Shown here: one piece after another, positions 11,834 through 54,466 of the stretch | How the letters are laid out: the number at the start of each line of letters is the position of its first letter | Position numbering within the stretch: the first letter of the stretch is position 1 | IMG/VR virus record: IMGVR_UViG_3300042398_001385 | Location: 89,315-153,314 of that record | Direction: 5' to 3' (one strand) | Source: a virus | DNA length: 64,000 nt | Position numbers and translations under genes: made by a program | The notes under the pieces: model-generated | What the model saw: the letters and a program-made list of their open reading frames with translations, nothing else | The model's database searches: none | Told to the model about the DNA's origin: nothing

Positions 11834-11848
11834 AACTTATCTTATATC

Positions 11849-12070
11849 TTATTCTACTTTTTTTCCGGGTTTTAGTTTCTTATTTGATGACAAAAAGAAA
11901 TAAAATCCAAAGAAAAGAGCCGAAAGGAAGTAAAAAATCGCTACTGTATGCCAGTAGGAATTTGTCCATTTCATTATCGTTGCAAAAAGGATATCGAATC
12001 CGAAGGGATTGAAGAAAGTTGCTAAGACCAAACATACTGATGATATTCTTGTTCTGTTTTTCTGATTCAC
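11849..12070 (-). CDS. Small two-helix membrane protein
   Basis: Two hydrophobic segments and a basic tail. Confidence 0.5.
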   Translation of the reverse strand: MNQKNRTRISSVCLVLATFFNPFGFDILFATIMKWTNSYWHTVAIFYFLSALFFGFYFFLSSNKKLKPGKKVE

Positions 12071-12121
12071 AATCGTCGTCCATATTATTTTAATATCTAC
12101 ATTTTTGATTTCTATGAAAAC

Positions 12122-12151
12122 AAAAAATGGAGACTTTGTAGAGCCTCCATT
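12122..12151 (-). terminator. Intrinsic terminator after the tail tube genes
   Basis: ATGGAG/CTCCAT stem plus U-tract. Confidence 0.65.
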
Positions 12152-12172
12152 TATATATTTGTTTTATTTTTA

Positions 12173-12751: not shown

Positions 12752-12762
12752 TTTTTAATTAT

Positions 12763-13335: not shown

Positions 13336-13379
13336 ATTTTTATTTTATATATTTATCTTAGATAATTCTATACAAATTA

Positions 13380-39039: not shown

Positions 39040-40683
39040 ATGAATAGAAATTTAAAATCGTTTAACCAATTCTCTCCAGTTAATGAAAGCGTAGCTCCAG
39101 CTAAAGCATGGTTACTAAAAACAGCAGCAGAAGAGAAAAGAAGAAGATTTAAATTAGATCCGATGGAGAAAATTGAGTTTACTCCAGAGGAAGAGAAAAA
39201 AATATTAAATAATCCTAATTATGTAGAGGTTAGGGATTATTTCTTAAATACGGTTAAGAAGCCAGGTTTGGTTTATCCATTTACTTATTTTAGAATAGCA
39301 GAGAGATTACCTATGAGTGATCCTGATCCTAATGCTTTTTCCGTGGAAAATCTTTATAGAAAATATGAAGAAAACTCTCCAATGTTTTCAACCTTTCCAC
39401 TTCCTTTAGGAAATATCGATAGCTACATAAAAAGAACACCCGAGGGAGAAAGATCTTTCGAAAAATTATGGGATGATTTAGAAAATATTACATCACAAAA
39501 ACCTATAAAAGAATTCGTAGATAGATTCGTAGGTCCAATAAGAAGAGAATTTTCAGAATCTCTAAGATTAAAAGAAACAGATCCTGAAAGAGCTAGTCTT
39601 TTAGATAGACTATATCACGCGGTAACTGACCTGAAACAGCTAAAACCTCTAGTTGATGAGGAAACTAATAAAGAGGAAACTGCAGAGGATCAGTTAGTTG
39701 CTAATGGTAGTAAATATAAAGACACAAGAACATATCCAGAATTCTCAGATACTTATGTTGCTTTCAAGGAATTTGTTTTAGATTGTGAAGATAAAGTTTC
39801 GGGATGGGGATCAGGTATAACAGAATTTATAGAACTTTTAAGATCTATAGCGCCATCTATAAAAATACTATATTATAATATTGCTAAAAAAATAGTGGTA
39901 ACTTCAGCTAGATCAGCTGAAGGGATGAGAGCTGTTTGTAAAATATCAAATGCTCCATATTGTATAAGAACGGATTCAACTTTTTGGCAATATACATCAG
40001 GAAGACTACAGTTATCAATAAATCTATTAGGACTTCCTAAAACTGATGATAAATATCTAACTTCTCTTACTGTAGATCCTAACGGAAGAATTACAAGTTC
40101 TGCTAATAGAAGAAACCACTCAGTTACTAATAGAGGCTCTCAGAACTACTTAGAGCTTATGAAAGAATATGGCATCTATTCACCAGAAATAGAGGAAGCT
40201 ATAACTAAAAATTTCGATACAGAGTTAGTAATTAAAAAAATTATACAATCAATATCTCAGAAATCTGGGGGAAGCAACATAGCGTTAATACATGCACTAG
40301 GAAGTTTAGGAGTTCAAAGAGCTATAGAGGAAGGGGAATACTCTAGAGAGGAAATGGATACATTTAAAAATCTTGTAGTAACCATAATCAGAAAAGATAA
40401 CTCTATAAAATATCCAGAGGTTGTTAGCGCTTTTAATTCAGAAAAAAATGGAGGATTCTTTAGTTTAGAAGACATAGATCTATTTAAAGAACTTACTGAA
40501 GGAAAGTATGACAAAAATGATGTTATAAATATATTAAAACTAACAACGGAAGGTGTAGAAATGCTAGGATCTTTTCTAGAACAAACAAAAGATTCAGAGG
40601 ATGTTAACACAATTAAACTTGTTAAACATTTAGTTGATACTCACCCTTCAGTTATGGAATATGCTGAATCAGTTCTTCTTTAA
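39040..40683 (+). CDS. Hypothetical protein, paralogue of 37363-39024
   Basis: Same motifs; MNRNLKSFNQFSPVNE. Confidence 0.75.
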   Translation: MNRNLKSFNQFSPVNESVAPAKAWLLKTAAEEKRRRFKLDPMEKIEFTPEEEKKILNNPNYVEVRDYFLNTVKKPGLVYPFTYFRIAERLPMSDPDPNAFSVENLYRKYEENSPMFSTFPLPLGNIDSYIKRTPEGERSFEKLWDDLENITSQKPIKEFVDRFVGPIRREFSESLRLKETDPERASLLDRLYHAVTDLKQLKPLVDEETNKEETAEDQLVANGSKYKDTRTYPEFSDTYVAFKEFVLDCEDKVSGWGSGITEFIELLRSIAPSIKILYYNIAKKIVVTSARSAEGMRAVCKISNAPYCIRTDSTFWQYTSGRLQLSINLLGLPKTDDKYLTSLTVDPNGRITSSANRRNHSVTNRGSQNYLELMKEYGIYSPEIEEAITKNFDTELVIKKIIQSISQKSGGSNIALIHALGSLGVQRAIEEGEYSREEMDTFKNLVVTIIRKDNSIKYPEVVSAFNSEKNGGFFSLEDIDLFKELTEGKYDKNDVINILKLTTEGVEMLGSFLEQTKDSEDVNTIKLVKHLVDTHPSVMEYAESVLL

Positions 40684-40686
40684 TCT

Positions 40687-41175
40687 CTAATCAGGTAGAT
40701 AAGCAGTCCAGATATCCATTCCTTTAGAGAAATTCCTAATGAAATACCCATAACCAGGTTTAAATGGTTTGTGTCTCATTTTCATACCAGCTTCCTCTGG
40801 TGTTCTGTCGCCTTTTTTACTATTACATTTAGAACAACAGGTAGCTAGATTTTCCCATGTATTAATACCGCCTCTAGATTTAGGTCTAACATGATCTATA
40901 GTAAGTTGCTTCGTAGAATCGCAGTATAAGCACTTTAATTCGTCTCTCTTAAATATGTTCTCCCTAGTGGGTTTTAGCTTTTTAAATGGAAGAACAACGT
41001 ACTTTAAAAGCCTTATAACTGAGGGCCTTTTGTAAATTTTTTGATCTGTTACTATCGGATTTTCTTCATCGTGCTCTAAAACTTCAGCTTTACCTTTGTA
41101 TACAAGCTTAAATCCCCGGGCAAAATCGGTAACGCTTACAGGCGTAAAGTCATTATTTAATACTAGCACTTTCAT
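40687..41175 (-). CDS. HNH endonuclease; start corrected to 41175
   Basis: MKVLVLN, RDELKCLYC, TIDHVRPKSRGG, CNSKKG. Confidence 0.88.
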   Translation of the reverse strand: MKVLVLNNDFTPVSVTDFARGFKLVYKGKAEVLEHDEENPIVTDQKIYKRPSVIRLLKYVVLPFKKLKPTRENIFKRDELKCLYCDSTKQLTIDHVRPKSRGGINTWENLATCCSKCNSKKGDRTPEEAGMKMRHKPFKPGYGYFIRNFSKGMDIWTAYLPD

Positions 41176-41217
41176 AATCTTAAATTTTACATACTGGACA
41201 TTGTATTTATCTTTTTG

Positions 41218-41289
41218 TTTTCCCCCAAGGGTTCGAACCTCGATTCTGTGGACCAAAACCACATGTCCTGCCAATTAGACGAGAGGAAA
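41218..41289 (-). tRNA. tRNA-Gln(TTG)
   Basis: Cloverleaf; loop TTTTGGT. Confidence 0.9.
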
Positions 41290-41294
41290 ATATG

Positions 41295-41367
41295 AGCTTT
41301 TGACGGGGATCGAACCTGCGACACCTTCATTACAAGTGAAGTGCTCTACCAACTGAGCTACAAAAGC
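41295..41367 (-). tRNA. tRNA-Thr(TGT)
   Basis: Loop CTTGTAA. Confidence 0.92.
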
Positions 41368-41368
41368 A

Positions 41369-41445
41369 TGGGGTGACAGAGGGGAATCGAACCCCCGACC
41401 TTCTGAACCACAATCAGACGCTCTAACCAACTGAGCTACCGTCAC
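41369..41445 (-). tRNA. tRNA-His(GTG), CCA encoded, G-1 not encoded
   Basis: Loop TTGTGGT; C73. Confidence 0.92.
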
Positions 41446-41447
41446 AG

Positions 41448-41520
41448 TAGCGAGTGGCAGGTTCGAACTGCCGACCTTTGGGGTATGATTCCAACGCTCT
41501 ACCAACTGAGCTAACTCGCC
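41448..41520 (-). tRNA. tRNA-Met(CAT), elongator type
   Basis: Loop ATCATAC; GGCGAGT acceptor. Confidence 0.8.
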
Positions 41521-41527
41521 ATATAAG

Positions 41528-41600
41528 TGGAGTAGATGGGACTTGAACCCACATCCTCTTCCTTGCAAAGGAAGCGCTCAGCCAATTGAGCTACTACCCC
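41528..41600 (-). tRNA. tRNA-Ala(TGC)
   Basis: Loop TTTGCAA; G3:U70. Confidence 0.92.
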
Positions 41601-41601
41601 G

Positions 41602-41677
41602 TGGAGCGATAGACAGGATTCGAACCTGCGACCCCCGACTTGGAAGGACGGTGCTCTACCAACTGAGCTACTATCGC
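41602..41677 (-). tRNA. tRNA-Gly(TCC)
   Basis: Loop CTTCCAA; CCA encoded. Confidence 0.92.
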
Positions 41678-41753
41678 ATTTAGAGACGTGTGGAATTACG
41701 CATCCACTTCAACCGTCGGACTGTCCGTCTCTATATCTTACAGATACACTGTG

Positions 41754-41835
41754 TCGGAGCGGAGGGATTCGAACCCCCAATGCCGTAAGGCGGCTGATTT
41801 ACAGTCAGCTGAGCAGCCAATTGCTCAACACTCCG
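41754..41835 (-). tRNA. tRNA-Tyr(GTA) with C1:G72 and long variable arm
   Basis: Loop CTGTAAA; acceptor CGGAGTG/CGCTCCG-A. Confidence 0.88.
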
Positions 41836-41840
41836 AATTG

Positions 41841-41912
41841 CGGGGAAGGCTGGATTCGAACCAGCGACCTATCGATTAACAGTCGAGAGCTCTACCGCTG
41901 AGCTACATCCCC
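41841..41912 (-). tRNA. tRNA-Asn(GTT)
   Basis: Loop CTGTTAA. Confidence 0.9.
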
Positions 41913-41917
41913 AGTTT

Positions 41918-41999
41918 AGATTAGAGAATATTTGAGCGAGGTGTTTTTTGGTCAAATTTAAAAGTTCTGAGAAGTAACCCCATTCACCGCTTCTAATCT
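41918..41999 (-). ncRNA. GAAGCGG/TACTTC/TTCTC-family ncRNA (candidate Y-like RNA), copy inside tRNA operon 1
   Basis: Closing stem AGATTAGA/TCTAATCT; same motifs as the three copies beside the Ro60 gene. Confidence 0.7.
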
Positions 42000-42001
42000 T
42001 G

Positions 42002-42074
42002 TAGTCCCTGAGGGATTCGAACCCCCGACATTTTGGATGTAAACCAAACGCTCTACCAACTGAGCTAAGAGACT
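42002..42074 (-). tRNA. tRNA-Val(TAC)
   Basis: Loop TTTACAT. Confidence 0.9.
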
Positions 42075-42079
42075 AAATG

Positions 42080-42156
42080 TGGTTGACATAGAAGGATTCG
42101 AACCTTCGGCCTTTGACGTATCAGATCAACGCTCTAACCAACTGAGCTATATGTCA
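42080..42156 (-). tRNA. tRNA-Ile(GAT)
   Basis: Loop CTGATAC; CCA encoded. Confidence 0.9.
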
Positions 42157-42162
42157 ATGTTG

Positions 42163-42248
42163 CGGAAAGAATTGGAATCGAACCAAATACCAATTAAGGT
42201 ACGCTTCGCTTAGCAGGCGAGCCCCGTCACCATCTGAGATTACTTTCC
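42163..42248 (-). tRNA. tRNA-Ser(GCT)
   Basis: Loop CTGCTAA; long variable arm; G73. Confidence 0.88.
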
Positions 42249-42377
42249 TTTTTTTAATATTCTCTTTATTCTTTTGAGAATTTTTTTACCAGTTGTGAAA
42301 TTAATCACATCAATTCTTAGGTTTTCCCTACTTGAAGCAAAGCTTCCACTAATTACTACTTTTTCTTTTTTATTCAT
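42240..42377 (-). CDS. 45-aa basic peptide inside the tRNA operon (MNKKEKVVISG...KRILKKGK)
   Basis: Open frame filling the Cys-Ser spacer. Confidence 0.4.
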   Translation of the reverse strand: MNKKEKVVISGSFASSRENLRIDVINFTTGKKILKRIKRILKKGK

Positions 42378-42393
42378 AGGCACAATTTATTTG

Positions 42394-42464
42394 AGATCGC
42401 GACTGGAATTGAACCAGTATAGCCGGTTTTGCAGACCGTTTCCTAACCACTCGGACACGCGATC
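42394..42464 (-). tRNA. tRNA-Cys(GCA)
   Basis: Loop CTGCAAA; U73. Confidence 0.9.
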
Positions 42465-42475
42465 TTGTTTTTTAG

Positions 42476-42548
42476 AGGTTCCACCTGGATTCGAACCAGG
42501 ATCAGATCATCCGTAGTGATCCATTCTAATCCGTTGAACTATAGAACC
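42476..42548 (-). tRNA. tRNA-Arg(ACG)
   Basis: Loop CTACGGA. Confidence 0.88.
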
Positions 42549-42554
42549 TTTTTG

Positions 42555-42627
42555 CACGCCCTGTAGGAATCGAACCTACAACCTTTGGTTTTGGAGACCA
42601 ACGCTCTACCAATTGAGCTAAAGACGC
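42555..42627 (-). tRNA. tRNA-Trp(CCA)
   Basis: Loop CTCCAAA; G73. Confidence 0.9.
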
Positions 42628-42631
42628 ATTT

Positions 42632-42766
42632 AAGGAAAGATGAAGATGGTTGCGTGGACATCATCTTTTACGATTGGCTTTACTTAGGTGTATATCTCCC
42701 AACTCCGATGATCCCAGCCGATATACACTCTCATGCTATTGGAATCATCCTTCCCCAATCAACCTT
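42632..42766 (-). ncRNA. Unidentified structured RNA within tRNA operon 1
   Basis: Stems GATTGG/CCAATC, GTGTATATC/GATATACAC, AAGATG/CATCTT; closing AAGG/CCTT. Confidence 0.5.
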
Positions 42767-42768
42767 TG

Positions 42769-42842
42769 TGATCCCGCCGGGACTCGAACCCGGGACTCCC
42801 TCATTAAAAGTGAGGTGCTCTAGCCAACTGAGCTACGAGATC
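42769..42842 (-). tRNA. tRNA-Lys(TTT)
   Basis: Loop CTTTTAA. Confidence 0.92.
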
Positions 42843-42912
42843 ATTTTACTAAACCTATTTTTGTCTCACTAAACAAATGATGTTTAGTAATACAATTTCT
42901 TGTTTAGTATTG

Positions 42913-42985
42913 TGGTACCGGCCGGAATCGAACCGGCGACACCTAGATTTTCAGTCTAGTGCTCTACCGACTGAGCTACGGTACC
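42913..42985 (-). tRNA. tRNA-Phe(GAA)
   Basis: Loop CTGAAAA. Confidence 0.92.
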
Positions 42986-43014
42986 TTGGTTTTCCAGTAT
43001 GTCAAAGAACAAAT

Positions 43015-43044
43015 AAAAAAGGCTTCGAATAATCGAAGCCTTTT
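43015..43044 (-). terminator. Attenuator terminator of tRNA operon 1
   Basis: AAAAGGCTTCGA-TTAT-TCGAAGCCTTTTTT between leader and first tRNA. Confidence 0.88.
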
Positions 43045-43072
43045 CCAAAATATCTAAATATGATTTTCTGTA

Positions 43073-43180
43073 TTAGCTTCGATCGGGTTCTTTCCCCTTA
43101 GCCCAAAACGCCACCGTTTGATAGCAGCCATTAATCTGACTGTTCATGCGAATGATGTTATGTTTACTACAGTTTTTCAT
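43073..43180 (-). CDS. Leader peptide 1 (MKNCSKHNIIRMNSQINGCYQTVAFWAKGKEPDRS)
   Basis: 35-codon ORF just after the promoter; its 3' end ATCGAAGCT is complementary to the terminator 5' arm. Confidence 0.85.
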   Translation of the reverse strand: MKNCSKHNIIRMNSQINGCYQTVAFWAKGKEPDRS

Positions 43181-43192
43181 TGTTTTCTTTAT

Positions 43193-43257
43193 TATATATC
43201 TCTATTCCGATATTGTTTCACAAAATTAGAATAATTATTCCAGATAAAAAAATGATT
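43193..43257 (-). promoter_or_regulatory. Tandem promoters of tRNA operon 1 (AATCATTTTTT...TAATTTTG and GAAAC-N18-TATA)
   Basis: Both motifs recur with fixed spacing elsewhere in the window. Confidence 0.65.
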
Positions 43258-43268
43258 TTTGATATTTT

Positions 43269-43646
43269 TTAATATTCCTCTTCGATTATTTCCATTTCTT
43301 GGATTAATCCGACAGCTTCTTCACCTTCTACTTCATCCCATGAATAATCCACATTAGTAGATTCGTAAGCATTAAAGAAAGAATCTGAATTTCTTTCTAA
43401 TTGTTTTTTCATAAACGATACTATTTCATCTTCTGAATATTGACCGTTTACCATTTCTAAAGCTTCATTGTAATCAGAAATTCCTTCCTGACTTACTCCA
43501 TTCATCACATTTAAGAAAGATCCTAAAGCAAAAATAGCTGCTTCTCTTTGATCTTTTCCAATACCAACTGCTTTAAAATTTACCTGTGCATCAGGATTCT
43601 CGTGAGCTACACTCATAGTAACTCTGCTCATTTTGTTTAATTCCAT
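43269..43646 (-). CDS. Acidic hypothetical protein, probably early
   Basis: ORF; AATCTTTTTT...TACATTTA motif upstream. Confidence 0.65.
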   Translation of the reverse strand: MELNKMSRVTMSVAHENPDAQVNFKAVGIGKDQREAAIFALGSFLNVMNGVSQEGISDYNEALEMVNGQYSEDEIVSFMKKQLERNSDSFFNAYESTNVDYSWDEVEGEEAVGLIQEMEIIEEEY

Positions 43647-43715
43647 TGTAAAAGTTTTTTTAATTAGAATGTAAATGTAGGAATTAAATTACAGGGGAAA
43701 AAAAGATTTTATTAA

Positions 43716-44234
43716 TTAAATTAAAAATTTAATAATTTTATCCTTAATTCCTGACTGTTTTATCCCCTCATTATAAGGTTTGGTAGTCATTACAAAGTTT
43801 TCTAGTTTAGAAAGATTCATATCATCTACTGCCACCCAATGTGTTACCTCTGGATGGTTTTTAAGCCATTCTTTAATCTCTGTAAAACGAATAGCTTCGT
43901 AAAGATTTTTCCATTTGAAAAGTCCAAAACCATTCTCGTCGAAATCTTTCATATTAGGTGTAAGATCAATTGGGGGTTTAATTCCACGGGTAACATACAT
44001 CTTTTTCATTTGTTCAAGATTACCCCAGTTTTTCCAATCGGAAGAAATAACAATCTCGCATCCTGTTTCTTCGATAATTTGATTTAGAACTTTAACAGCT
44101 TTAGAATCAAAGCTATCCATTCGAATATCCAAAGGGGTTTCTGGGTTACTATCGTATCCCTTCTTTTTGAATCGTCCTCCCCATTGTGAGGAAAGACAGA
44201 TTACTCCATCATGATCTAAAAATAAAACTTTCAT
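43716..44234 (-). CDS. HAD-superfamily phosphatase (Swiss-army-knife RNA-repair HAD type); start corrected to 44234
   Basis: FLDHDGV, ISSDW, EIKEWL, VAVDD motifs. Confidence 0.78.
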   Translation of the reverse strand: MKVLFLDHDGVICLSSQWGGRFKKKGYDSNPETPLDIRMDSFDSKAVKVLNQIIEETGCEIVISSDWKNWGNLEQMKKMYVTRGIKPPIDLTPNMKDFDENGFGLFKWKNLYEAIRFTEIKEWLKNHPEVTHWVAVDDMNLSKLENFVMTTKPYNEGIKQSGIKDKIIKFLI

Positions 44235-44235
44235 G

Positions 44236-44309
44236 TGGTCCCTCACGGGCTCGAACCGTGGACCTACTGATTATGAGTCAGTTGCTCTAACCTGCTGAGC
44301 TAAGGGACC
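44236..44309 (-). tRNA. tRNA-Ile2(CAT), lysidine type
   Basis: Loop CTCATAA; GGTCCCT acceptor; near-identical to 49153-49226. Confidence 0.8.
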
Positions 44310-44315
44310 TTTTTG

Positions 44316-44395
44316 TACCTTCGGAGAGACTCGAACTCTCACGCTTTCGCACTAGATCCTAAGTCTAGCGTGTCTACCAATTCCACCACGAAGGC
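44316..44395 (-). tRNA. tRNA-Leu(TAG)
   Basis: Loop CTTAGGA; variable arm. Confidence 0.92.
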
Positions 44396-44401
44396 ATTTA
44401 G

Positions 44402-44474
<73 letters not shown>

Positions 44475-44480
44475 ATATTG

Positions 44481-44554
44481 CGGTCCTAGCGGGACTCGAA
44501 CCCGCGATCTCCGCCGTGACAGGGCGGCGTCCACTCCAACTGGACTGTAGGACC
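44481..44554 (-). tRNA. tRNA-Asp(GTC)
   Basis: Loop CTGTCAC; G73. Confidence 0.92.
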
Positions 44555-44640
44555 AATTTGTTACTTATTCTCCTACCCTTTTATTTCGTAACCAACCTGC
44601 TTATCTTTAAATACGAGTTTCTCAAGGGTACAGGTTGTAG

Positions 44641-44712
44641 TAGTCGGTACGGGATTCGAACCCGTGTGACAAGGATGAAAACCTTGTATCCTGACCCCTA
44701 GATGAACCGACC
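44641..44712 (-). tRNA. tRNA-Glu(TTC)
   Basis: Loop TTTTCAT. Confidence 0.92.
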
Positions 44713-44834
44713 ATAAAAAAGGAATAAGGCAGGACCTACGCTCTGTCTTGCATTCCATCTCAAGAGCTGCCTAATACCAGTGGGTTAGTGGTTACCTTAT
44801 TCCTAATTTCAATATTTCAAAGAGCGTATAAAAC

Positions 44835-44863
44835 AAAAAAACCTCTGAGGTTATCAGAGGTTT
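44835..44863 (-). terminator. Attenuator terminator of tRNA operon 2
   Basis: AAACCTCTGA-TAACC-TCAGAGGTTTTTTT. Confidence 0.88.
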
Positions 44864-44884
44864 AAATTATATCGTTATATTAAT

Positions 44885-44974
44885 TTAATTCCTCTGACAC
44901 TTAAATCTATCCTCTAGAAGTGAATCTTCTTTACGAAGAGTAAAATCTGTTGCGATATTTAAAAAGTGTTTCAT
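44885..44974 (-). CDS. Leader peptide 2 (MKHFLNIATDFTLRKEDSLLEDRFKCQRN)
   Basis: 29-codon ORF; its 3' end TCAGAGG is complementary to the terminator 5' arm CCTCTGA. Confidence 0.8.
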   Translation of the reverse strand: MKHFLNIATDFTLRKEDSLLEDRFKCQRN

Positions 44975-44999
44975 TGAAAGTTTTGTTCCTTTTTTATTA

Positions 45000-45026
45000 T
45001 ATACTCCAAAAGTACAGAAAAGTTTC
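45000..45026 (-). promoter_or_regulatory. GAAAC-N18-TATA promoter of tRNA operon 2
   Basis: Recurrent motif. Confidence 0.65.
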
Positions 45027-45062
45027 CTATTTAAAAAACGATTTCCTGAATTTTTTTATTTT

Positions 45063-45602
45063 TTATCCTCCTACTCCTATAGCAGCATAGGTATCAGCTA
45101 TTTTTTTGATCCCGTCGAATAATCTTTTTTTCTGTCCTTCCCATCTAGAATCACCCGTATTAATAGCTTTAACTAATACTGGAGGAAGAGCATTAGTAAT
45201 GTTTTCCATCGTGATATCATATATTTTATTTTGTGAAGGGAACAATTTAATTTTTTTGTCTTTAGGATCAGGAGCTAAATATATGTCTATATTTTTTTCT
45301 GTCCCTCCTGCAGTTGTTTTTAATCTCACTGCAATACCGTTTCCTGTAGATTTTGGTGCTTCCATTTGACTAGCAATAGATGCTGATTCAACTAATATAG
45401 CTGGACTCCCCTTAATAGGAAAATAAAGAGGATTAAGCTTTCCAGCAGAGTCTTTAACTTCACTAACAAATAGTTTGCCGAGTAAATCTTTTTGTTGACT
45501 TATATAAGTTTCCAATTTCTTTTTAAACTCCTCTGGTGAAGCAGCCTCGTTTACATTAAGATTCTCGGATAGGAATAAATCGAATGTTAGGATATTTTTC
45601 AT
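45063..45602 (-). CDS. Hypothetical protein with shared N-terminal motif
   Basis: MKNILTFDLFLSENLNVNE; start corrected. Confidence 0.7.
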   Translation of the reverse strand: MKNILTFDLFLSENLNVNEAASPEEFKKKLETYISQQKDLLGKLFVSEVKDSAGKLNPLYFPIKGSPAILVESASIASQMEAPKSTGNGIAVRLKTTAGGTEKNIDIYLAPDPKDKKIKLFPSQNKIYDITMENITNALPPVLVKAINTGDSRWEGQKKRLFDGIKKIADTYAAIGVGG

Positions 45603-45613
45603 TTTAATTTTTT

Positions 45614-45892
45614 TTATAAATTCCAAGCTGGGTTAGCAACTATTAGAATGCCATTTTCTACTCTAGGAATAGGTTTAGTTGAATAAACATCATCATATTC
45701 TATTTGGTCTGGGTAGAATTTTTGTCCTTGGAACATGATGTAGTTTTCTTCATCTTTACCTCTGTGGCTCCATCCTTGTCCTCTCATAGAATCGTGAGCT
45801 GCATCATCAACTGTTGGTCTGCCAAAGAGAGCATCCCAGAATCCCTCGTTTACTTTTTCAGAGAATGATTCAAATTCAAATATATGTTTCAT
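45614..45892 (-). CDS. Hypothetical protein with shared N-terminal motif
   Basis: MKHIFEFESFSEKVNE; start corrected. Confidence 0.7.
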   Translation of the reverse strand: MKHIFEFESFSEKVNEGFWDALFGRPTVDDAAHDSMRGQGWSHRGKDEENYIMFQGQKFYPDQIEYDDVYSTKPIPRVENGILIVANPAWNL

Positions 45893-45905
45893 TTTGTTTT
45901 TTATT

Positions 45906-46262
45906 TTAAAGCATATTAGATAAAATGTGATAAAGACTATCGCATTCATAATCCATATCGCTTAATTCTAAATTTCTTCCGTTGTACATTATAGTTGATT
46001 CATTAGTATCAACAGTAACAGATTTTCCAATAATCCAAGCTACTATTACACCAGGTTTAATCTCTCTGACGTTTTCAACAAAGGATTTATCAGGAAATCC
46101 TGATGGGTCTTTATATCCAATAGCTCTATAAATGCTGTCCAGTGATGCTCGATCTTCTTTTTTTTCGTATCCAATAAATCTTTTTCCAGCACTTACTGCT
46201 TTTTGAAGCAGAGAAGGTTTTTTAAACTGATTAAAATCCTCGAATATTTTTAGGTGCTTCAT
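45906..46262 (-). CDS. Hypothetical protein with shared N-terminal motif
   Basis: MKHLKIFEDF; GATATATA at 46276-46283. Confidence 0.7.
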   Translation of the reverse strand: MKHLKIFEDFNQFKKPSLLQKAVSAGKRFIGYEKKEDRASLDSIYRAIGYKDPSGFPDKSFVENVREIKPGVIVAWIIGKSVTVDTNESTIMYNGRNLELSDMDYECDSLYHILSNML

Positions 46263-46282
46263 TTATTTTTTTATTTATATAT

Positions 46283-46702
46283 CTATAGTATTCCTTGAGA
46301 TCTTAGAAATTGGTAGATAGAATCAGAATTTTCCTCTGCCCACGTTATAGCTATTTCCTCTATATCTACACCTTTATATGTTAAATCTGTTCCGTGTATT
46401 TCTAGAGATAGGTGCATAGATTCGTGCATAATCAATAAAACGTCCTTATATCCATTACCTAACCGAGTAGCATTTAAAAATAAAAAGAGCTTGTTGTGAT
46501 CATCCGGATAAACATTACATAATCCTGCTATATAAGCATTAGTTGGATTATCGTAACAGTCTTTCTTATAAAGACCATGTAGTTCTTCTACACCAAAAAA
46601 ATTAAATATATCTTCGGACTTTTTCCCTATTATTAGAGTATATTCGGGATATTGCTTTGTAATTATTCCTGATATATCGAAATATGATAGTTTTTTAATC
46701 AT
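46283..46702 (-). CDS. HExxH metallopeptidase-like protein
   Basis: IMHESMH followed by EE. Confidence 0.55.
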   Translation of the reverse strand: MIKKLSYFDISGIITKQYPEYTLIIGKKSEDIFNFFGVEELHGLYKKDCYDNPTNAYIAGLCNVYPDDHNKLFLFLNATRLGNGYKDVLLIMHESMHLSLEIHGTDLTYKGVDIEEIAITWAEENSDSIYQFLRSQGIL

Positions 46703-46712
46703 ATTATTCTAA

Positions 46713-48326
46713 TTATAATTCAAGCATGTCATAAACGTCCTTATATCCGTACTTTTTAGCCCCTCTATTCATTGCTATTAGATATGATCCAATGTTTAAA
46801 AGATCAGGAAATACTGGACTGTCTACTAATCTATCAGCTATCTTACCGGCAGCTTCTTCCCATTCTGGGCTTTCTTTCTTTTTAATAATAATATCCTGTA
46901 AAATTTCTAGTTCTTTACGGTTATCCTGGAGGAACTTTCCTATCCATGAAGTTTTAAACGCTTGCTTTATGTCGAACAGTAGGTACTTATTGAAATAGTA
47001 ATACTCACCTATGTATTCATTGCTCCTTTTAGCCATAACTTCTTTTTGTTCTGGAGTTCCGTAACTGTATCGTTCAGGTCTTGTGTATTCAGGGTGAGAC
47101 TCAAAATCTCTATCTAACTCAGATTCTAATTTATTCGGATCCCATGAATCCATACTTAACGCGTGTTCATCCGAATTATTCCAAATGAAACCTGCAGTCT
47201 CATCGAACTGTTTCATTGAAAATTTAGGAGTAGCTATGATCTTGCAAACCATCGTCATGTATCGTAAGTAGTTGCGCACAACTTCTTTGTCGAAAGGATC
47301 TTCTGTATGATCATTTGATAAATATTTCACACAAGCTTTCAAGTAATCTTTGCTGAATCCTCTATGAGCTTGGTACTCCTGTTCTTCTTTCTTGATGTCC
47401 AAGTTTTTGTACTGAGATCTTTTAATCTTCCCTAGACTCATAAAATCTTCCCAGTTCGTTTGTCCCTTCTCAAGATTGTACCATTTAGAACCCCAGTGTA
47501 GTCCACTTTTTCTGATGTCTTCCCTGTCTTGTAAATCTCTCATCTCACTGTCAAGATTATCATCGGTTGAGTAGTGAGAGCCCCCACTAAACGTAGTGTA
47601 GCCCATAGCTTCTATCGCATTGTTGGCATCTTGCAGCTCGTAATCGACAATATCTCCTTTTATCTTCAAGAAATAAATTTGGTTTCTGTTCTCAGCTGTT
47701 TTAGACACAAACTCCCTAACTTCTTCCTCTGCTTCAGGTAAGTAAAGAACTACTGTACCGTCAGACACTACCAAGCTCTTGTCATAGTAAGTGTCTATAG
47801 CAAAGAGACTGGCAGGTTTTCCGTTAGTCTTGATCATAGATTCTCCGGGCATCAAGTAGATGTACTTGTTACCTGTCCAGTTTCCACCTGAGTGAGAAGA
47901 AACTACGTGGTTCAACGTAAAGTGTTTTGTCCATCTGGTGGAATGAGCATCTATCATCCATTTTCTAAAAGTTTCAAAGTCCTTGTAGTGAGGTTCTTCC
48001 TTTATCCATGTATTTTCAGGGTCGTTGATGTCATCATTGTACTTCTTCTTGAGGTACTTCTCGAAAGAGTCATTGAAGCCTACGCTCTTTAGAGCTTTTC
48101 CTGTGTGAAGTATCATATCTTTACCACGAAGTGTGGGAAGCTCATCTGAGGATCTAATAAAAACTAAGTTCTTCCAATCAATAGCTACTATACCATCTTC
48201 CTTAAAATCCAGTTTGTCCACAGGTTCTCCAACTTTAGGTAATTCACTAATATTATTAATTATTTTAGAAGCTTTTGATAGGTATTCAAAAACAAACTCT
48301 TCGAATAATTTTATGTACTTTTTCAT
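46713..48326 (-). CDS. Hypothetical protein with shared N-terminal motif
   Basis: MKKYIKLFEEFVFE; GATATATA at 48333-48340. Confidence 0.75.
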   Translation of the reverse strand: MKKYIKLFEEFVFEYLSKASKIINNISELPKVGEPVDKLDFKEDGIVAIDWKNLVFIRSSDELPTLRGKDMILHTGKALKSVGFNDSFEKYLKKKYNDDINDPENTWIKEEPHYKDFETFRKWMIDAHSTRWTKHFTLNHVVSSHSGGNWTGNKYIYLMPGESMIKTNGKPASLFAIDTYYDKSLVVSDGTVVLYLPEAEEEVREFVSKTAENRNQIYFLKIKGDIVDYELQDANNAIEAMGYTTFSGGSHYSTDDNLDSEMRDLQDREDIRKSGLHWGSKWYNLEKGQTNWEDFMSLGKIKRSQYKNLDIKKEEQEYQAHRGFSKDYLKACVKYLSNDHTEDPFDKEVVRNYLRYMTMVCKIIATPKFSMKQFDETAGFIWNNSDEHALSMDSWDPNKLESELDRDFESHPEYTRPERYSYGTPEQKEVMAKRSNEYIGEYYYFNKYLLFDIKQAFKTSWIGKFLQDNRKELEILQDIIIKKKESPEWEEAAGKIADRLVDSPVFPDLLNIGSYLIAMNRGAKKYGYKDVYDMLEL

Positions 48327-48364
48327 ATACGTTATATATCTCGTTTATTTAGATATATAGTAGT

Positions 48365-48937
48365 ATGAAGTATATTAAACTATTTGAGGGATTTGATACA
48401 AATAATAATCCCACATCGATAACATTAGAGATACTTCCTGGATTCTACAATAGAATGAAAGAATCTAATGGAACTGTAACAGATGGAAGTTATGGATATC
48501 CTGATCCTAAAAATATACAGTTGTTCGATGGGAGTACTGATTTTAAAGAGAATTATAATCTTTGTTACGTAGCTAGATTAAATTCCAAATCTGAATATAA
48601 CTACGGAGGATCTGTATCTATTTGGATTAGTTATAGAAGAGACATTGCAGAGATTTCAATGTACGAGTCTATATTTGACTTTGATACTAATAGAAAATTA
48701 ATGGATTATGCTTCAGGTTTACCTAACACATCCCCAATTTATAAGGGATTATGGAAGGATACAAATCAGGATAACATAGAATATAACAGGAGATTAATGC
48801 CAAAGGATACACTATCAAGAGTTAGAAGAGAAGAATGGAACTTCTTTAATCCTACTGGATATTGCAAATTTGAAGATGGCGTAGAACCAGGTAAAACCGA
48901 TCACCGAGGATACTTCAGAATTAAAGAGGTTAAGTAA
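48365..48937 (+). CDS. Hypothetical protein with shared N-terminal motif
   Basis: MKYIKLFEGF; GATATATA at 48352-48359. Confidence 0.75.
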   Translation: MKYIKLFEGFDTNNNPTSITLEILPGFYNRMKESNGTVTDGSYGYPDPKNIQLFDGSTDFKENYNLCYVARLNSKSEYNYGGSVSIWISYRRDIAEISMYESIFDFDTNRKLMDYASGLPNTSPIYKGLWKDTNQDNIEYNRRLMPKDTLSRVRREEWNFFNPTGYCKFEDGVEPGKTDHRGYFRIKEVK

Positions 48938-48951
48938 AAAAATCTAAAAAG

Positions 48952-49054
48952 TACAAGAGGTTGGACTTGAACCAACATGAACTTTCGTTCTCGGGCATGA
49001 CACCCTAGCGTCTATCCATCGGATCATAAATGAACTCGCTTCCGCCACTCTTAT
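48952..49054 (-). ncRNA. Atypical tRNA-like RNA (Leu-type body, D-loop insertion, non-canonical anticodon loop TGTCATG)
   Basis: Acceptor ATAAGAG/CTCTTGT-A; T-arm GTTGG-TTCAAGT-CCAAC; variable arm GAAC-GAAA-GTTC. Confidence 0.65.
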
Positions 49055-49059
49055 ATTTG

Positions 49060-49143
49060 TACCCGGAGAGGGACTTGAACCCTCACGACCAAATGGCCAA
49101 CAGATTTTAAGTCTGTCTTGTCTACCTATTCCAACATCCGGGC
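49060..49143 (-). tRNA. tRNA-Leu(TAA)
   Basis: Loop CTTAAAA. Confidence 0.92.
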
Positions 49144-49152
49144 AGACTTTTG

Positions 49153-49226
49153 TGGTCCCTCACGGGCTCGAACCGTGGACCTACTGATTATGAGTCAGTT
49201 GCTCTAACCTACTGAGCTAAGGGACC
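49153..49226 (-). tRNA. tRNA-Ile2(CAT), lysidine type
   Basis: Loop CTCATAA; differs by 1 nt from 44236-44309. Confidence 0.8.
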
Positions 49227-49230
49227 TAAG

Positions 49231-49304
49231 TAGAGACGACGAGAGTCGAACTCGTGACCGCATGCGTATAAGGCATGTGCTCTAACCAATTGAGCTACGC
49301 CTCT
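49231..49304 (-). tRNA. tRNA-Ile(TAT)
   Basis: Anticodon arm CATGC-CTTATAC-GCATG; A73. Confidence 0.85.
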
Positions 49305-49311
49305 ATGGCTG

Positions 49312-49384
49312 TCGGGATACCAGGACTCGAACCTGGGGCCTCCTGGTCCCAAACCAGGCGATCTACCAACTGATCTACATCCCG
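49312..49384 (-). tRNA. tRNA-Pro(TGG)
   Basis: Loop TTTGGGA; CGGGATG acceptor. Confidence 0.92.
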
Positions 49385-49551
49385 AAATTGTATGTCTTTA
49401 AGTATCACCAGAACATACAAACTGTGCCAACCAACGATTTGGAGAATAAGTGTGCATAACATTAAAGAATACCAAGGTATCCTACCTGTCTACGGTGTAG
49501 AGGCCTATTCCATCTTCGATCCATGCCCAGCGCTAGGCAGAGGGATTTGTG

Positions 49552-49625
49552 TGATCCGAGCAGGATTCGAACCTGCGACCTACTGCTTAGAAGGCAGTTG
49601 CTCTATCCAGCTGAGCTATCGGACC
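49552..49625 (-). tRNA. tRNA-Arg(TCT)
   Basis: Loop CTTCTAA. Confidence 0.92.
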
Positions 49626-49628
49626 AAA

Positions 49629-49717
49629 TGGCGGAGAGGGCGAGATTCGAACTCGCGGTAGCTTTCACTACGTCGGTTTTCAAGACCGGTGCATTAAACC
49701 AACTCTGCCACCTCTCC
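49629..49717 (-). tRNA. tRNA-Ser(TGA)
   Basis: Loop CTTGAAA; long variable arm; CCA encoded. Confidence 0.92.
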
Positions 49718-49742
49718 AATTCATCATTATTTCAAAGACCAT

Positions 49743-49777
49743 AAAAAAACCGGGACTTTTAAAGGTCCCGGTTTTTT
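49743..49777 (-). terminator. Attenuator terminator of tRNA operon 3
   Basis: AAAAAACCGGGAC-CTTTAAAA-GTCCCGGTTTTTTT. Confidence 0.9.
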
Positions 49778-49798
49778 AGTTTATAGTTATAGTTAAAA

Positions 49799-49873
49799 CT
49801 AACACAGGACCTTTAGAGATCGTCTTATCGACGGTCTTAATATTATAGGTAATATGTTAAGTGTTTTGTTCAT
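49799..49873 (-). CDS. Leader peptide 3 (MNKTLNILPIILRPSIRRSLKVLC)
   Basis: 24-codon ORF; TAAAGGTCC near its end is complementary to GGACCTTTA in the terminator. Confidence 0.85.
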   Translation of the reverse strand: MNKTLNILPIILRPSIRRSLKVLC

Positions 49874-49881
49874 TTAAGTAT

Positions 49882-49946
49882 TATATATCGTTCCTTTTGT
49901 TTTGTTTCACAAATATAGATCTTTTATATTGATAAAAAAAATGATT
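49882..49946 (-). promoter_or_regulatory. Tandem promoters of tRNA operon 3 (AATCATTTTTT...TATATTTG and GAAAC-N18-TATA)
   Basis: Same layout as upstream of leader 1. Confidence 0.65.
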
Positions 49947-49959
49947 ATGTGGATTAATT

Positions 49960-50451
49960 TTAAAAATTAATTTGTTTTTTAATCTTTTCAATGATATAAT
50001 TTGAAAGATCTGTTTTATCTGAATAATCTAATTTATGTTTGCTAATAAACATGCTTATTTTATTCTTTATATCTCTTTTTATATCATTAGTTAATGTATC
50101 AATCTCATTAGAAAGACTATTATAAAGAGAGGCTCTTTTATAATCTCTAATAGTATCAGGATCGAGGCCATTATAATATTTTTCGATATCTGAATTATCC
50201 ATTTTACCAGCATTTATAGCCATAGTTATAATCTCAGTAAAAAAATCTCCATTTAGTTTTCCTTCTTTAACCATAGATCCAATAACAGAAATAAAGTGGT
50301 AAAGATCATCCTTATCTCCTTTATCGATTACACCTTTTGCAAGTGCTAAAATCCCTGAAGGAGTCATTGACTCAATCATTTTAGGTGTAAGTCCAGCAAG
50401 TTTTTGTGAATATGGAGTGCTATACTCTTCGAATAAATTTATATGCTTCAT
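49960..50451 (-). CDS. Hypothetical protein with shared N-terminal motif
   Basis: MKHINLFEEY. Confidence 0.7.
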   Translation of the reverse strand: MKHINLFEEYSTPYSQKLAGLTPKMIESMTPSGILALAKGVIDKGDKDDLYHFISVIGSMVKEGKLNGDFFTEIITMAINAGKMDNSDIEKYYNGLDPDTIRDYKRASLYNSLSNEIDTLTNDIKRDIKNKISMFISKHKLDYSDKTDLSNYIIEKIKKQINF

Positions 50452-50492
50452 TATATTTATATTATTTATCTATATCTATATATCTATATATT

Positions 50493-51422
50493 TCAATTAA
50501 TTCTTTTTTTACCTGCTATAGAATCCCATATGTTTCTACTTTTTGTAGCTATGGCTTTTCCCGTTGGTGCTAATCTATCCTGTACTGTTTTAAGAGCGTC
50601 TTGTGTGTCTTTCTTTAATCTAGCGCCAAACACATTTCCTTTTCTTATCCCCTTATCGATCATTTGTGTCATTTTTTCCATTCCATCATCAATAGTTTTG
50701 TTAATAGGAACTTTAAGATTGTCTAATGTATTTTGACACACTTTATAAAAGTCTTCTATATTTTGTCCTATATTAATTGATTTTACACCAACCTCTTTTG
50801 CTGTACCATAAACACAAGAACTTAAAAATTCAGGTATTGTTTTAAATGATGAAGTCGATGATTTATAAGATCCTACAGTTAATACTGATACAGCCTCTGA
50901 AGCTTTTGGCGAAGATTCTGCTAATTTATAAAGATCTTTAAGAACCATTTTAAATAATCCGGATGAATCTTCCTTCATACTATTAAAGGTCTCTTCTCCT
51001 TTATCAGTGTAATATTTATTTATTCTGCTAAAAGTGTATATAACGCTTAATCCTGCTGTGATTTCTCCTTCTTTAACATAAGAAAAAATAGACGAAGCTA
51101 GAGTCATTATTCCGTCTGCAACTGCTTCAGAAACAACATATATCCCGTCAGGCGTAAAAACTAGGGTCTTATCTTTTTTTTCTGCTATTTTTAAAAGCGT
51201 AGCTCCTATCTTCTTATTACTTTCATTAATTGAATCAGCATAAGCTTTCATTCCGCTTCCTACACACAAGAAATTATATTCCCTCCCGCTTATAGTTGTA
51301 GTTTTTACATCTTTTAATGTTCTATACAGAAGTTTATTATCTATATCAAACAGTTTTGATTTACTGTCTGTAATTTCGCTTTCAAATAAAACGAAATCAT
51401 TAAAGTCTAAAATCTTATTCAT
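50493..51422 (-). CDS. Hypothetical protein with shared N-terminal motif
   Basis: MNKILDFNDFVLFE. Confidence 0.7.
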   Translation of the reverse strand: MNKILDFNDFVLFESEITDSKSKLFDIDNKLLYRTLKDVKTTTISGREYNFLCVGSGMKAYADSINESNKKIGATLLKIAEKKDKTLVFTPDGIYVVSEAVADGIMTLASSIFSYVKEGEITAGLSVIYTFSRINKYYTDKGEETFNSMKEDSSGLFKMVLKDLYKLAESSPKASEAVSVLTVGSYKSSTSSFKTIPEFLSSCVYGTAKEVGVKSINIGQNIEDFYKVCQNTLDNLKVPINKTIDDGMEKMTQMIDKGIRKGNVFGARLKKDTQDALKTVQDRLAPTGKAIATKSRNIWDSIAGKKRIN

Positions 51423-52834: not shown

Positions 52835-54466
52835 TTATTTTTTGGACTCTATAGAATCCCAAGTATCTATAATAGCATTGGCAAATATTGGTTCTTTACC
52901 AGTCCATCCTGCTAATATTGCACCTCTATAAAGATTTTCAGGAAGTACAGAATTGTTGTAACCTGCAACTTGTATACAGAAGACATTAACCTTAGGATTA
53001 ACAGTTCTTCTATATTCTTGTACCATTGCTAGAACGTCGACGTTTACTGATCCCTTATCTCCGTGTCCATAAGGAGAAACCCCAACTGTGTCTCCGTGTC
53101 CATATAAACCTCCATGTCCTGCCTGCATATCTGAGTATATGAAAACAGTATCATAATGTGTCTTATTTTTTATAGCATCGTCCCAGAATATCCATATTCC
53201 ATTTTCTGTTCCACCTCCTTGTTCTCTACCTCTTTTAGATGTCTCTGCTAATTGAGTGAGTATACCATTTCTTTTAGAAACTCCTTTTAGTGATAATTCA
53301 TCTCCAAATACTCCTACAATACCTTCGTCGGACTGTAAAGCAGTTGTTAATGAAGAAAGGTTAGCTATTTCTGCTACTGTTACAGTTCCATATTCGCTAT
53401 TAAAAGATCTCCATGCTGATCCTGAGTTGTCAGATAGACAAGCAGTTTTACCTTTTAATTTAGGCATATTAGATACTGAAATATCTAAGCACTCCTCTAA
53501 AGTATCCAGTACAAGCTGTTTGTGGTGTATATCAGAACCTTGAATTGCTTTGAAAGCAGACCAATATCTGAATGGAAATTGTTTTCCGTTTTCAACCCCA
53601 GATTTTAGTTGAGCTAATATTCTTGCTGTGATTGTACGATCATCTACTTCTGTAAAAATACCTCTAAGGTTTCTCAACAACGCCATATGAGGAATAAGAA
53701 TGGTATCTGTTATTTCCTTCCATGTTTTTCCTTCAGATCTTAGAGTTTCCCAAGTTTTTTCGCTCTCTTTAACTTTTAAAGTACCAGTAGACATTAACTC
53801 ATTTATGTCCTCTCCTTTTGCGTGAGATATACGTACAAGATCTATTAGTCTTTTTCCTTTGTACTTATTTAATTGGTATCTGCTAAATTCTCCAAGTCTT
53901 TCTGCCCAAGTTCTTTTAACCATAGACGAAAGACCTTTTTTATCTCCATTCTTATACATGTAGTATTCGAATTGATTAGTCAAATCATCTGGTCGTAAAG
54001 AAATAGCTTTACCTATACTCTTCATGTACCCCGGATTACTTTCATTAAACTCGACTCTTGAAGGGTGTTGTGAAGCTTTTATAAAGATCACAGCTGGATT
54101 AAGTCTCATAAAGAAATTAGTTCTTAGATCTAGGGCTAAATCCAATGTTCCTTTAAAATCGTAACTTAAAGCAGATTCTATAGCATTTTCAAAAATCTCA
54201 GTAGCAGTTACATCTGATTGATACATTGATGGAAATATAGAATATTTTGACAATGTCTGTAGATTGCTAGGAGCCTTTAATCCATCTCTATAATACTGAG
54301 GCTCTCCAAATATAGACGAAGCCGCTACGATTCTTAAAGTGTCTAGAGGATTTATCTCATAGGATGTCCCTCCCATAAAATTTTCCACTGCAAAAGCACC
54401 GTAAATTGAATTTTGTGCAATTTGCATTGCCATTTTTTTGTCTGCGTAATCACTTAACTTTGACAT
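52835..54466 (-). CDS. rsr: Ro60/TROVE-domain RNA-binding protein with vWA domain
   Basis: YQLNKYK, TWETLRS, MALLRNLR, QFPFRYWSA; DNSGS MIDAS motif; YSDMQ. Confidence 0.92.
   Translation of the reverse strand: MSKLSDYADKKMAMQIAQNSIYGAFAVENFMGGTSYEINPLDTLRIVAASSIFGEPQYYRDGLKAPSNLQTLSKYSIFPSMYQSDVTATEIFENAIESALSYDFKGTLDLALDLRTNFFMRLNPAVIFIKASQHPSRVEFNESNPGYMKSIGKAISLRPDDLTNQFEYYMYKNGDKKGLSSMVKRTWAERLGEFSRYQLNKYKGKRLIDLVRISHAKGEDINELMSTGTLKVKESEKTWETLRSEGKTWKEITDTILIPHMALLRNLRGIFTEVDDRTITARILAQLKSGVENGKQFPFRYWSAFKAIQGSDIHHKQLVLDTLEECLDISVSNMPKLKGKTACLSDNSGSAWRSFNSEYGTVTVAEIANLSSLTTALQSDEGIVGVFGDELSLKGVSKRNGILTQLAETSKRGREQGGGTENGIWIFWDDAIKNKTHYDTVFIYSDMQAGHGGLYGHGDTVGVSPYGHGDKGSVNVDVLAMVQEYRRTVNPKVNVFCIQVAGYNNSVLPENLYRGAILAGWTGKEPIFANAIIDTWDSIESKK

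Follow-up and report, generated by a model that had tools for sequence, protein, structure and literature searches.

The phage genome analyzed here is 153,314 bp in length, with a G+C content of 32.5%, and the window, the 64,000-nucleotide stretch of DNA under study, is its right-hand 64 kb. All 26 tRNA genes identified in the genome by ARAGORN fall within the window, in three blocks on the minus strand (hereafter referred to as operons 1, 2 and 3). Operon 1 runs from 42985 to 41217, and contains 15 tRNAs together with one tRNA-like gene (42163-42249, minus strand) that was missed by ARAGORN and found by Rfam alone, as a sub-threshold match of 38.3 bits to the tRNA-Sec model. Operon 3 runs from 49717 to 49059. 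Operon 2 (44235-44712, minus strand) was found by ARAGORN to encode Glu(TTC), Asp(GTC), an initiator Met(CAT), Leu(TAG) and an Ile2-like Met(CAT). The first of these Met genes possesses the hallmarks of an initiator, namely a 1:72 mismatch and three G-C pairs adjoining the anticodon loop, and the second, which is the last tRNA of the operon, is a near-identical copy of a gene in operon 3. A gene encoding an RNA-repair type HAD protein, HAD_SAK_2 (43716-44234, minus strand; Pfam PF18143, E 1.2e-23), starts 1 nt past this last tRNA.

Shine-Dalgarno motifs are not a feature of the genes of this phage (9 of 114 long ORFs, compared to 7% of random sites), and the regions upstream of its genes are A-rich. 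At the DNA level, its tRNAs match those of Cellulophaga and Flavobacterium phages. Taken together, such gene starts and tRNA matches suggest that the host belongs to the Bacteroidota. Searches of INPHARED with DNA and protein returned generic tRNA matches only, and no related phage. With regard to codon usage, CGN accounts for only ∼4% of the Arg codons in the long ORFs of the phage (∼0% for CGC), yet a tRNA-Arg(ACG) is carried; one CGN codon is also present in each of the leaders described below (43144-43142, 44935-44933 and 49822-49820).

Each operon is preceded by a small ORF, labeled leader 1, 2 and 3 respectively. Leader 2 (44885-44974, minus strand) starts with an ATG and spans 29 codons, followed by a TAA stop at 44887-44885. 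An A-rich stretch, and no Shine-Dalgarno motif, is found upstream of its ATG, as is the case for the phage's own genes. Some 22 nt upstream of the ATG lies a promoter-like box, GAAAC ... TATATAAT (44996-45026, minus strand), which is kept in nine related contigs, and an identical TATATAA box is present upstream of leaders 1 and 3. Judging by its sequence and position, this box would act as a promoter. A sigma-70 reading of it was rejected, as a consensus scan gives no match at the conserved box; a TTGA(A/C)A located after the terminator was also considered as a -35 element, and discarded as too near to the tRNA.

Within the leader 2 ORF, codons 13-22 (44909-44938, minus strand) form a candidate sensor stretch, with seven of these ten codons read by operon-2 tRNAs. 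It includes the cluster Glu Asp Ser Leu Leu Glu Asp at codons 16-22 (44929-44909, minus strand), in which both Leu codons are CTN. A 5-bp hairpin, present in both the minimum-free-energy and centroid folds, is predicted inside the ORF at codons 12-17 (44925-44939, minus strand); it is possible that this is a pause hairpin, and an analogous small hairpin is found within leader 3. An Asn-Ile codon pair is present in all three leaders on the minus strand, at codons 6-7 in leaders 2 and 3 (44959-44954 and 49858-49853) and at codons 8-9 in leader 1 (43159-43154). It is invariant at the nucleotide level in all relatives and, for leaders 2 and 3, bears no relation to their tRNA sets. This pair might reflect common descent of the leaders, or be a pause or processing signal.

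The end of the ORF overlaps the first of two alternative RNA structures. The antiterminator arm TGTCAGAGG (44899-44891, minus strand) includes a TCAGAGG (44897-44891) located 3 nt before the stop. The pairing of this arm is extended by an inner AT helix, between 44888-44881 and 44869-44862, so that the 5′ side and inner helix together span 44862-44899 on the minus strand. An intrinsic terminator follows (44835-44863, minus strand), 22 nt after the leader stop, and consists of seven G/C-rich pairs and a T7 run: CCTCTGA at 44860-44854, a loop at 44853-44849, TCAGAGG at 44848-44842, and the T-run at 44841-44835. The distance from the ATG to the terminator is only ∼140 nt. TCAGAGG is found only 13 times in the 153-kb genome, counting both strands. 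An independent consensus scan of 41000-51000 returned four terminator-like sites on the minus strand. Three of them are the strongest, with stems of 10-15 pairs, and each follows one of the three leader ORFs; the remaining site (41591-41576) has 5 pairs and lies inside a tRNA gene. These features agree with the first-pass annotation, made from the sequence alone, which had placed the Glu/Asp/Leu(CTN) cluster at codons 16-22 of leader 2, had described TCAGAGG as lying about 4 codons past it and pairing with the CCTCTGA arm of the terminator, and had listed Glu, Asp, fMet, Leu(TAG) and Ile2 as the content of operon 2. The measured distance from codon 22 to TCAGAGG is 11 nt.

Directly after the terminator is the boxA-like motif CTCTTTGAAAT (44814-44824, minus strand). 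In this genome, a T-run followed by TCTTTGA(A/C)A marks the starts of the three tRNA operons and is found nowhere else, and the same is true of every close relative. The motif presumably resembles the boxA of rrn operons and its E. coli consensus. In most relatives, tRNA-Glu begins 5-19 nt after this motif, leaving no space for a promoter, which implies that the tRNAs can be reached only by readthrough of the terminator. In the window, an 81-nt element with a closing stem of 10-12 bp and a T-run after it (44722-44802, minus strand) is present between the motif and tRNA-Glu. Its predicted fold has an energy of -26.9 kcal/mol (z -2.0), and it has no match in Rfam. At the leader 2 site, this element is found only in the window and in contig L002 (17532-17612); a homologue is located in another intergenic place in L022 (∼16040-16120), where the closing stem differs in sequence and still pairs. 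Possible identities for this element include a small RNA, a second terminator and a mobile mini-element.

Conservation and alternative helices

Relatives were gathered using as anchor a 543-amino-acid TROVE/Ro60-like gene (52835-54466; Pfam), which gave 48 IMG/VR loci. Nine contigs of uncultured phages, with a Ro60 that is 70-89% identical, share the three-operon layout and possess a leader 2 homologue. All 10 sequences (the window and the nine contigs) retain the ATG, the reading frame, and a stop located beside the antiterminator arm. The ORF is 24, 25, 29 or 30 codons in length, with the start-to-stop frame kept and length steps that are multiples of three. A second anchor, the HAD_SAK_2 gene, gave 35 loci and only three more copies of leader 2, all of known types. 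Homologous or analogous leaders were also identified in 16 further IMG/VR contigs, including the L001/L005 and L003 contigs, which retain leaders 1 and 3 only. In L001, a close relative, the operon-2 module and its leader are missing, along with the HAD_SAK_2 gene, and leader 1 is unchanged despite the loss of nine operon-1 tRNAs, indicating that, over short times, leaders follow tRNA content only loosely.

The HAD_SAK_2 gene is found 1-20 nt after the last operon-2 tRNA in seven contigs (the window, L002, L004, L006, L008, L009 and L022), and ∼450 nt after it in L010 and L040. Since the gene starts right after the last tRNA of operon 2, a position kept in relatives, the leader 2 switch probably also gates HAD_SAK_2.

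Several other particularities were observed in the related contigs. In L001, operon 1 opens (14340-14422, in the region 11600-15100) with an 83-nt tRNA whose variable arm is long and whose anticodon is GAA; this gene replaces the normal tRNA-Phe. In L003 (7036-7110), leader 3 starts with ATA instead of ATG, beside a reduced and partly decayed tRNA set; its remaining codons are still in the operon-3 set. In L007, tRNA-Ser is set apart from leader 3 and its terminator by ∼680 bp (5307-5984) that appear to be an inserted gene, and this insertion would uncouple or lengthen the gated unit. Suppressor-like tRNAs, with anticodons TTA or CTA, are encoded in L033 (1826), L034 (12167), L040 (17787), L035 (9839) and L083 (10531), a hint that stop codons are reassigned or suppressed in some of the relatives.

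The conservation of the locus extends to its predicted RNA structures. In MAFFT alignments, the terminator arms of L010 and L040 were shifted by one column, and each sequence was instead folded alignment-free. The minimum-free-energy fold of the full leader 2 (-35.1 kcal/mol, z -3.4) has the antiterminator formed, and not the terminator. For the window sequence, the predicted energy of the antiterminator is -16.0 kcal/mol, compared to -13.0 kcal/mol for the terminator; with every homologue folded without the 3′ arm, the antiterminator ranges from -14.8 to -20.2 kcal/mol, and the terminator from -13.0 to -15.1 kcal/mol. A mutually exclusive antiterminator, with its 5′ arm at the end of the ORF, is predicted in all leader 2 homologues, and folding of leaders 1 and 3 revealed the same alternative-helix design. 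The two helices also covary. L010 and L040 possess a different terminator stem, and their ORF-end arm and inner helix are different as well, with both helices still pairing; in L002, an A-T pair of the inner helix is replaced by G-C, a compensatory change.

No clear 1:2 helix, which would enforce termination when the leader is not translated, is seen in leader 2. Untranslated leader 2 RNA is predicted by the folding to read through, and an antiterminator fold of the naked RNA fits a scenario where failed initiation, for example upon loss of fMet-tRNA, would lead to readthrough.

A ribosome protects ∼13 nt downstream of the first base of its A site. Based on this footprint, the whole arm 44899-44891 would be free for a ribosome with its A site at codon 21 or earlier, and only two weak outer pairs would be clipped at codon 22. 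A ribosome located at the stop codon would cover the arm and part of the inner helix. By this geometry, the cluster ends at about the last stall position that still permits the antiterminator. The invariant Leu-Leu-Glu-Asp core of the cluster also overlaps a stretch able to pair with the terminator arms, and its conservation is ambiguous, as RNA pairing may hold it instead of codon identity.

Codon content of leader 2 and of other leaders

The sense codons were split into the sets read by the tRNAs of the three operons, for which the background shares in the long ORFs of the phage are 0.59, 0.195 and 0.25, respectively. Over the whole leader 2 ORF, enrichment in operon-2 codons is not significant (8/28 codons against a background of 19.5%, p=0.16), and half of the ORF consists of codons read by operon-1 tRNAs. 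The enrichment is local. The best 7-codon window contains 6/7 operon-2 codons (p ∼0.005, reached in 0.48% of simulated 28-codon ORFs), and only 5 of the 465 small ORFs (20-45 codons) in the genome include a window with at least 6/7. In four relatives this window is 7/7, reading EDDLLED (p ∼2e-4). For the sensor stretch as a whole, the 7/10 operon-2 codons, for Glu, Asp and Leu-TAG, compare with 19.5% in the background, and the corresponding counts in relatives range from 5/6 to 8/10.

The variation among relatives was then considered. Eight synonymous variants are found in the cluster columns of leader 2, and Leu is always encoded by CTN in these columns, a class that represents 45% of the Leu codons genome-wide. 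In no relative do the sensor stretches of leaders 1 and 3 contain a Glu, Asp or CTN codon. Of the non-synonymous variants in the leader 2 cluster, 5/6 fall outside the codons of operon 2 (Asp to Asn, Glu to Gly, Asp to Ser, Leu to Arg); those of leaders 1 and 3 all stay in their own sets, with 12/12 (P=0.008) and 8/8 (P=7e-5), respectively. Uninterrupted runs of own-set codons extend over 28 codons in leader 1 and 11 codons in leader 3. As a whole ORF, leader 2 fits the operons of two other phages better than its own (rank third of twelve, z=1.2), and it has the poorest codon match of all leaders measured.

In L010 and L040, the unit also contains a Pro(TGG) gene, and their leader 2 has three Pro codons. 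This link is only suggestive, since the three Pro codons sit in the antiterminator arm.

An automatic scan for leaders was also performed on more distant Ro60-anchored loci and on the HAD-anchored loci. The leaders that it identified consist of a small ORF with its stop near an arm complementary to the 5′ side of a terminator, then the terminator, followed by tRNAs. They show no evident sequence likeness to the window leaders, except for a leader-3-like one in L011/L012. The composition of those in L011, L018, L037, L048, L068 and L083 follows quite different tRNA sets, and folding was used to check the alternative pairing in L011, L018, L048 and two of the three L037 leaders. When 12 leader-operon pairs from 7 contigs were compared, the normalised match was best with the leader's own operon in 10/12, and the observed total was never reached in 200,000 trials where the assignment was shuffled (p<=5e-6).

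The first-pass annotation had regarded the codon match of leader 2 as looser than that of leaders 1 and 3, and had noted that no ATA codon is present for the Ile2 gene; both observations hold. Its reading of leader 2 as an attenuator stands as far as the architecture is concerned, with the frame kept in nine contigs, the covariation and the antiterminator fold all in agreement with it, and is only moderately borne out for codon specificity. Its proposal that the Glu/Asp/Leu cluster is the signal is favored by the local enrichment, by the 7/7 window of the relatives and by the exclusive use of CTN, and disfavored by the variants leaving the set and by the rank of the whole ORF. On balance, the codon content provides only moderate support for the Glu, Asp and Leu(CTN) codons as the codons sensed by leader 2.

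Proposed mechanism and alternative explanations

Based on these observations, I propose that leader 2 is a ribosome-mediated (leader-peptide) transcription attenuator of tRNA operon 2, which responds to specific codons. Transcription would start at the promoter-like box, and the 29-codon leader would be translated during its own transcription. A free-running ribosome would reach the stop codon (44887-44885) and cover the arm at 44899-44891; the terminator arms would then pair, and RNA polymerase would stop at the T-run (44841-44835). If instead the ribosome stalls upstream, or never initiates, the arm would be free to pair with 44860-44854, with the inner AT helix extending this pairing. With the antiterminator formed, no terminator could form, and the operon 2 tRNAs would be transcribed. 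The likeliest place for a stall would be codons 13-22, given their many Glu, Asp and CTN-Leu codons. The newly made tRNAs would in turn relieve the stall, leading to negative feedback on tRNA supply. Accordingly phrased, the proposal has the phage making its operon 2 tRNAs probably only when ribosomes slow. The sequences themselves show the parts, their conservation, the covariation of the alternative helices and the local codon enrichment; that the ORF is translated, where ribosomes stall, in which direction the switch responds, and that a shortage of these tRNAs is the signal are inferences. I regard the codon-specific form as moderately likely, and have considerably more confidence in ribosome-mediated control as such, that is, in the codon-specific form and a general response to translation status taken together.

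The general form is the alternative that best survives, even if I consider it unlikely. Here, any slowing of the ribosome, or failed initiation, would open operon 2, whether caused by host shut-off, by an attack on ribosomes or on the initiator tRNA, or by a shortage of any tRNA, and the cluster would be incidental, or held by RNA pairing. Much of what weakens the codon match speaks for it: half of the codons belong to other tRNA sets, the match over the whole ORF is not significant, variants of the cluster in relatives often leave the operon-2 set, and the core codons overlap a possible helix. The naked RNA also folds as an antiterminator, and absence of translation alone would give readthrough, while the presence of an RNA-repair type HAD gene in the unit fits a general damage response. 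However, the local cluster is unlikely to arise by chance, and is 7/7 in four relatives. Every Leu codon of the cluster is CTN, and leaders 1 and 3 exclude Glu, Asp and CTN codons from their sensor stretches; such a three-way partition would be difficult to account for if sensing were not codon-specific. The leaders of distant phages also track their own tRNA sets.

The codon-specific attenuator was also compared to factor-dependent antitermination, where a phage or host protein, or a Nus/boxA-type complex, would act without the ribosome, either by selecting one of the two helices or by rendering the polymerase resistant to the terminator, and the ORF would be untranslated or irrelevant. Phage antiterminators are common, and a boxA-like motif is indeed present at all three operon starts; this motif is however downstream of the terminator, and cannot act on the terminator of leader 2. 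The lack of a Shine-Dalgarno motif before the ORF could likewise be taken as a sign that it is not translated, but the phage's own genes lack such motifs as well, and translation is indicated by the frame-preserving length changes, the kept ATG, the stop located at the arm and the synonymous variation. In addition, the composition of leaders tracks tRNA sets across phages. I consider this explanation very improbable.

Least probable of all is that leader 2 is an ordinary small gene, or a chance ORF with a leaky terminator, and that the tRNAs are obtained by constitutive readthrough or from an unrecognised promoter; the pairing potential between the end of the ORF and the terminator would then carry no regulatory meaning. 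In its favor, AT-rich DNA contains many small ORFs (this genome has 465 with 20-45 codons), and the Asn-Ile pair and acidic core of the peptide are conserved. Against it, the C-terminus of the peptide is entirely different in L010 and L040, where the RNA helices differ, indicating that the RNA is kept there and not the peptide, and the N-terminus varies. Moreover, all three operons, and the unrelated leaders of distant phages, display the same three-part layout, and relatives have no promoter space between terminator and tRNA. A conserved small protein was rejected on the same grounds, its C-terminus following the RNA helices and its N-terminus varying.

Going beyond codon-specific attenuation at a single operon, one can tentatively envisage that the three leaders form a codon-partitioned sensor array. 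In such an array, leader 2 would sense the loss of Glu, Asp, Leu(UAG) and initiator tRNAs, and replacement tRNAs together with the HAD enzyme would be induced. This would constitute a countermeasure to host defences that cleave tRNAs, widespread in large Ro60-carrying phages. I put this forward as a possibility only, one that I would currently bet against.

Comparison with known regulatory systems

The presence of tRNA genes in phages is usually explained by compensation for codon usage, and more recently as a source of replacements after cleavage by defence nucleases. If the proposed mechanism is correct, the phage gauges the speed of decoding directly and produces tRNAs when they are needed, which would be a feedback loop on the translation machinery, and a textbook bacterial mechanism in a new use. 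Leader 2 would then provide a testable handle on when phage tRNAs matter. It would also link tRNA supply to RNA repair, with HAD_SAK_2 in the operon 2 unit, and Ro60 and candidate Y-like RNAs nearby. The data further suggest that, for uncultured phages, transcription units and tRNA function can be predicted from the composition of leaders. In this respect leader 2 is also a cautionary case, as it illustrates that the codon match can be loose while the architecture of the switch is strictly conserved.

A full-text literature search revealed no report of leader-peptide or ribosome-mediated attenuation for tRNA operons or phage tRNA genes, with the reservation that subscription journals are mostly outside its coverage and that such absence is no proof. 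At the level of sequence models, the Rfam leader families (Thr_leader, Phe_leader, His_leader, Trp_leader and Leu_leader) have no match on 44815-45026. Sub-threshold scores only were obtained for the other two leaders, with 29.7 bits (threshold 55) for leader 3 and Thr_leader, and 26.9 bits (threshold 55) for leader 1 and Phe_leader.

Leader 2 resembles T-box riboswitches in that the status of tRNAs would select between a terminator and an antiterminator in a 5′ leader. However, T-box riboswitches bind uncharged tRNA through a specifier codon and the T-box bulge, and need no translation. They are ∼200-300 nt in length, compared to only ∼140 nt for leader 2, and control genes for synthetases, biosynthesis or transporters. 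The Rfam T-box model gave no match at E<=1 in 40000-51000. The locus is also comparable to the boxA (NusB/NusE) antitermination of rrn and tRNA operons, in that a boxA-like motif is present where an operon of untranslated stable RNAs begins. In contrast to rrn boxA, the candidate motif of the phage is located downstream of the regulated terminator, and could therefore protect later transcription only.

The closest known systems are the enterobacterial attenuators, namely trpL, hisL, pheL and leuL, the multivalent thrL (Thr/Ile) and ilvGMEDA (Ile/Val/Leu) leaders, and pheM of pheST. In common with these, leader 2 has a short ORF, probably translated, whose stop is positioned such that the antiterminator arm would be masked by a ribosome terminating there, as well as an antiterminator and an intrinsic terminator that exclude each other. 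A hairpin within the coding part may serve for pausing, as in these systems, and the Glu/Asp/Leu cluster would be the counterpart of their regulatory codons, with several amino acids or tRNA species sensed at once. Unlike them, it has no clear 1:2 helix, and the genes that it would control are phage tRNA genes and an RNA-repair type gene, rather than biosynthetic or synthetase genes. The three phage leaders also differ from the enterobacterial ones in that they split synonymous codons by anticodon (CTN/TTR for Leu, CGN/AGR for Arg, AGY/TCN for Ser and ATY/ATA for Ile), which means that tRNA species, and not amino acids, would be sensed. The locus is best read as a known kind of regulator, here applied to phage tRNA genes.
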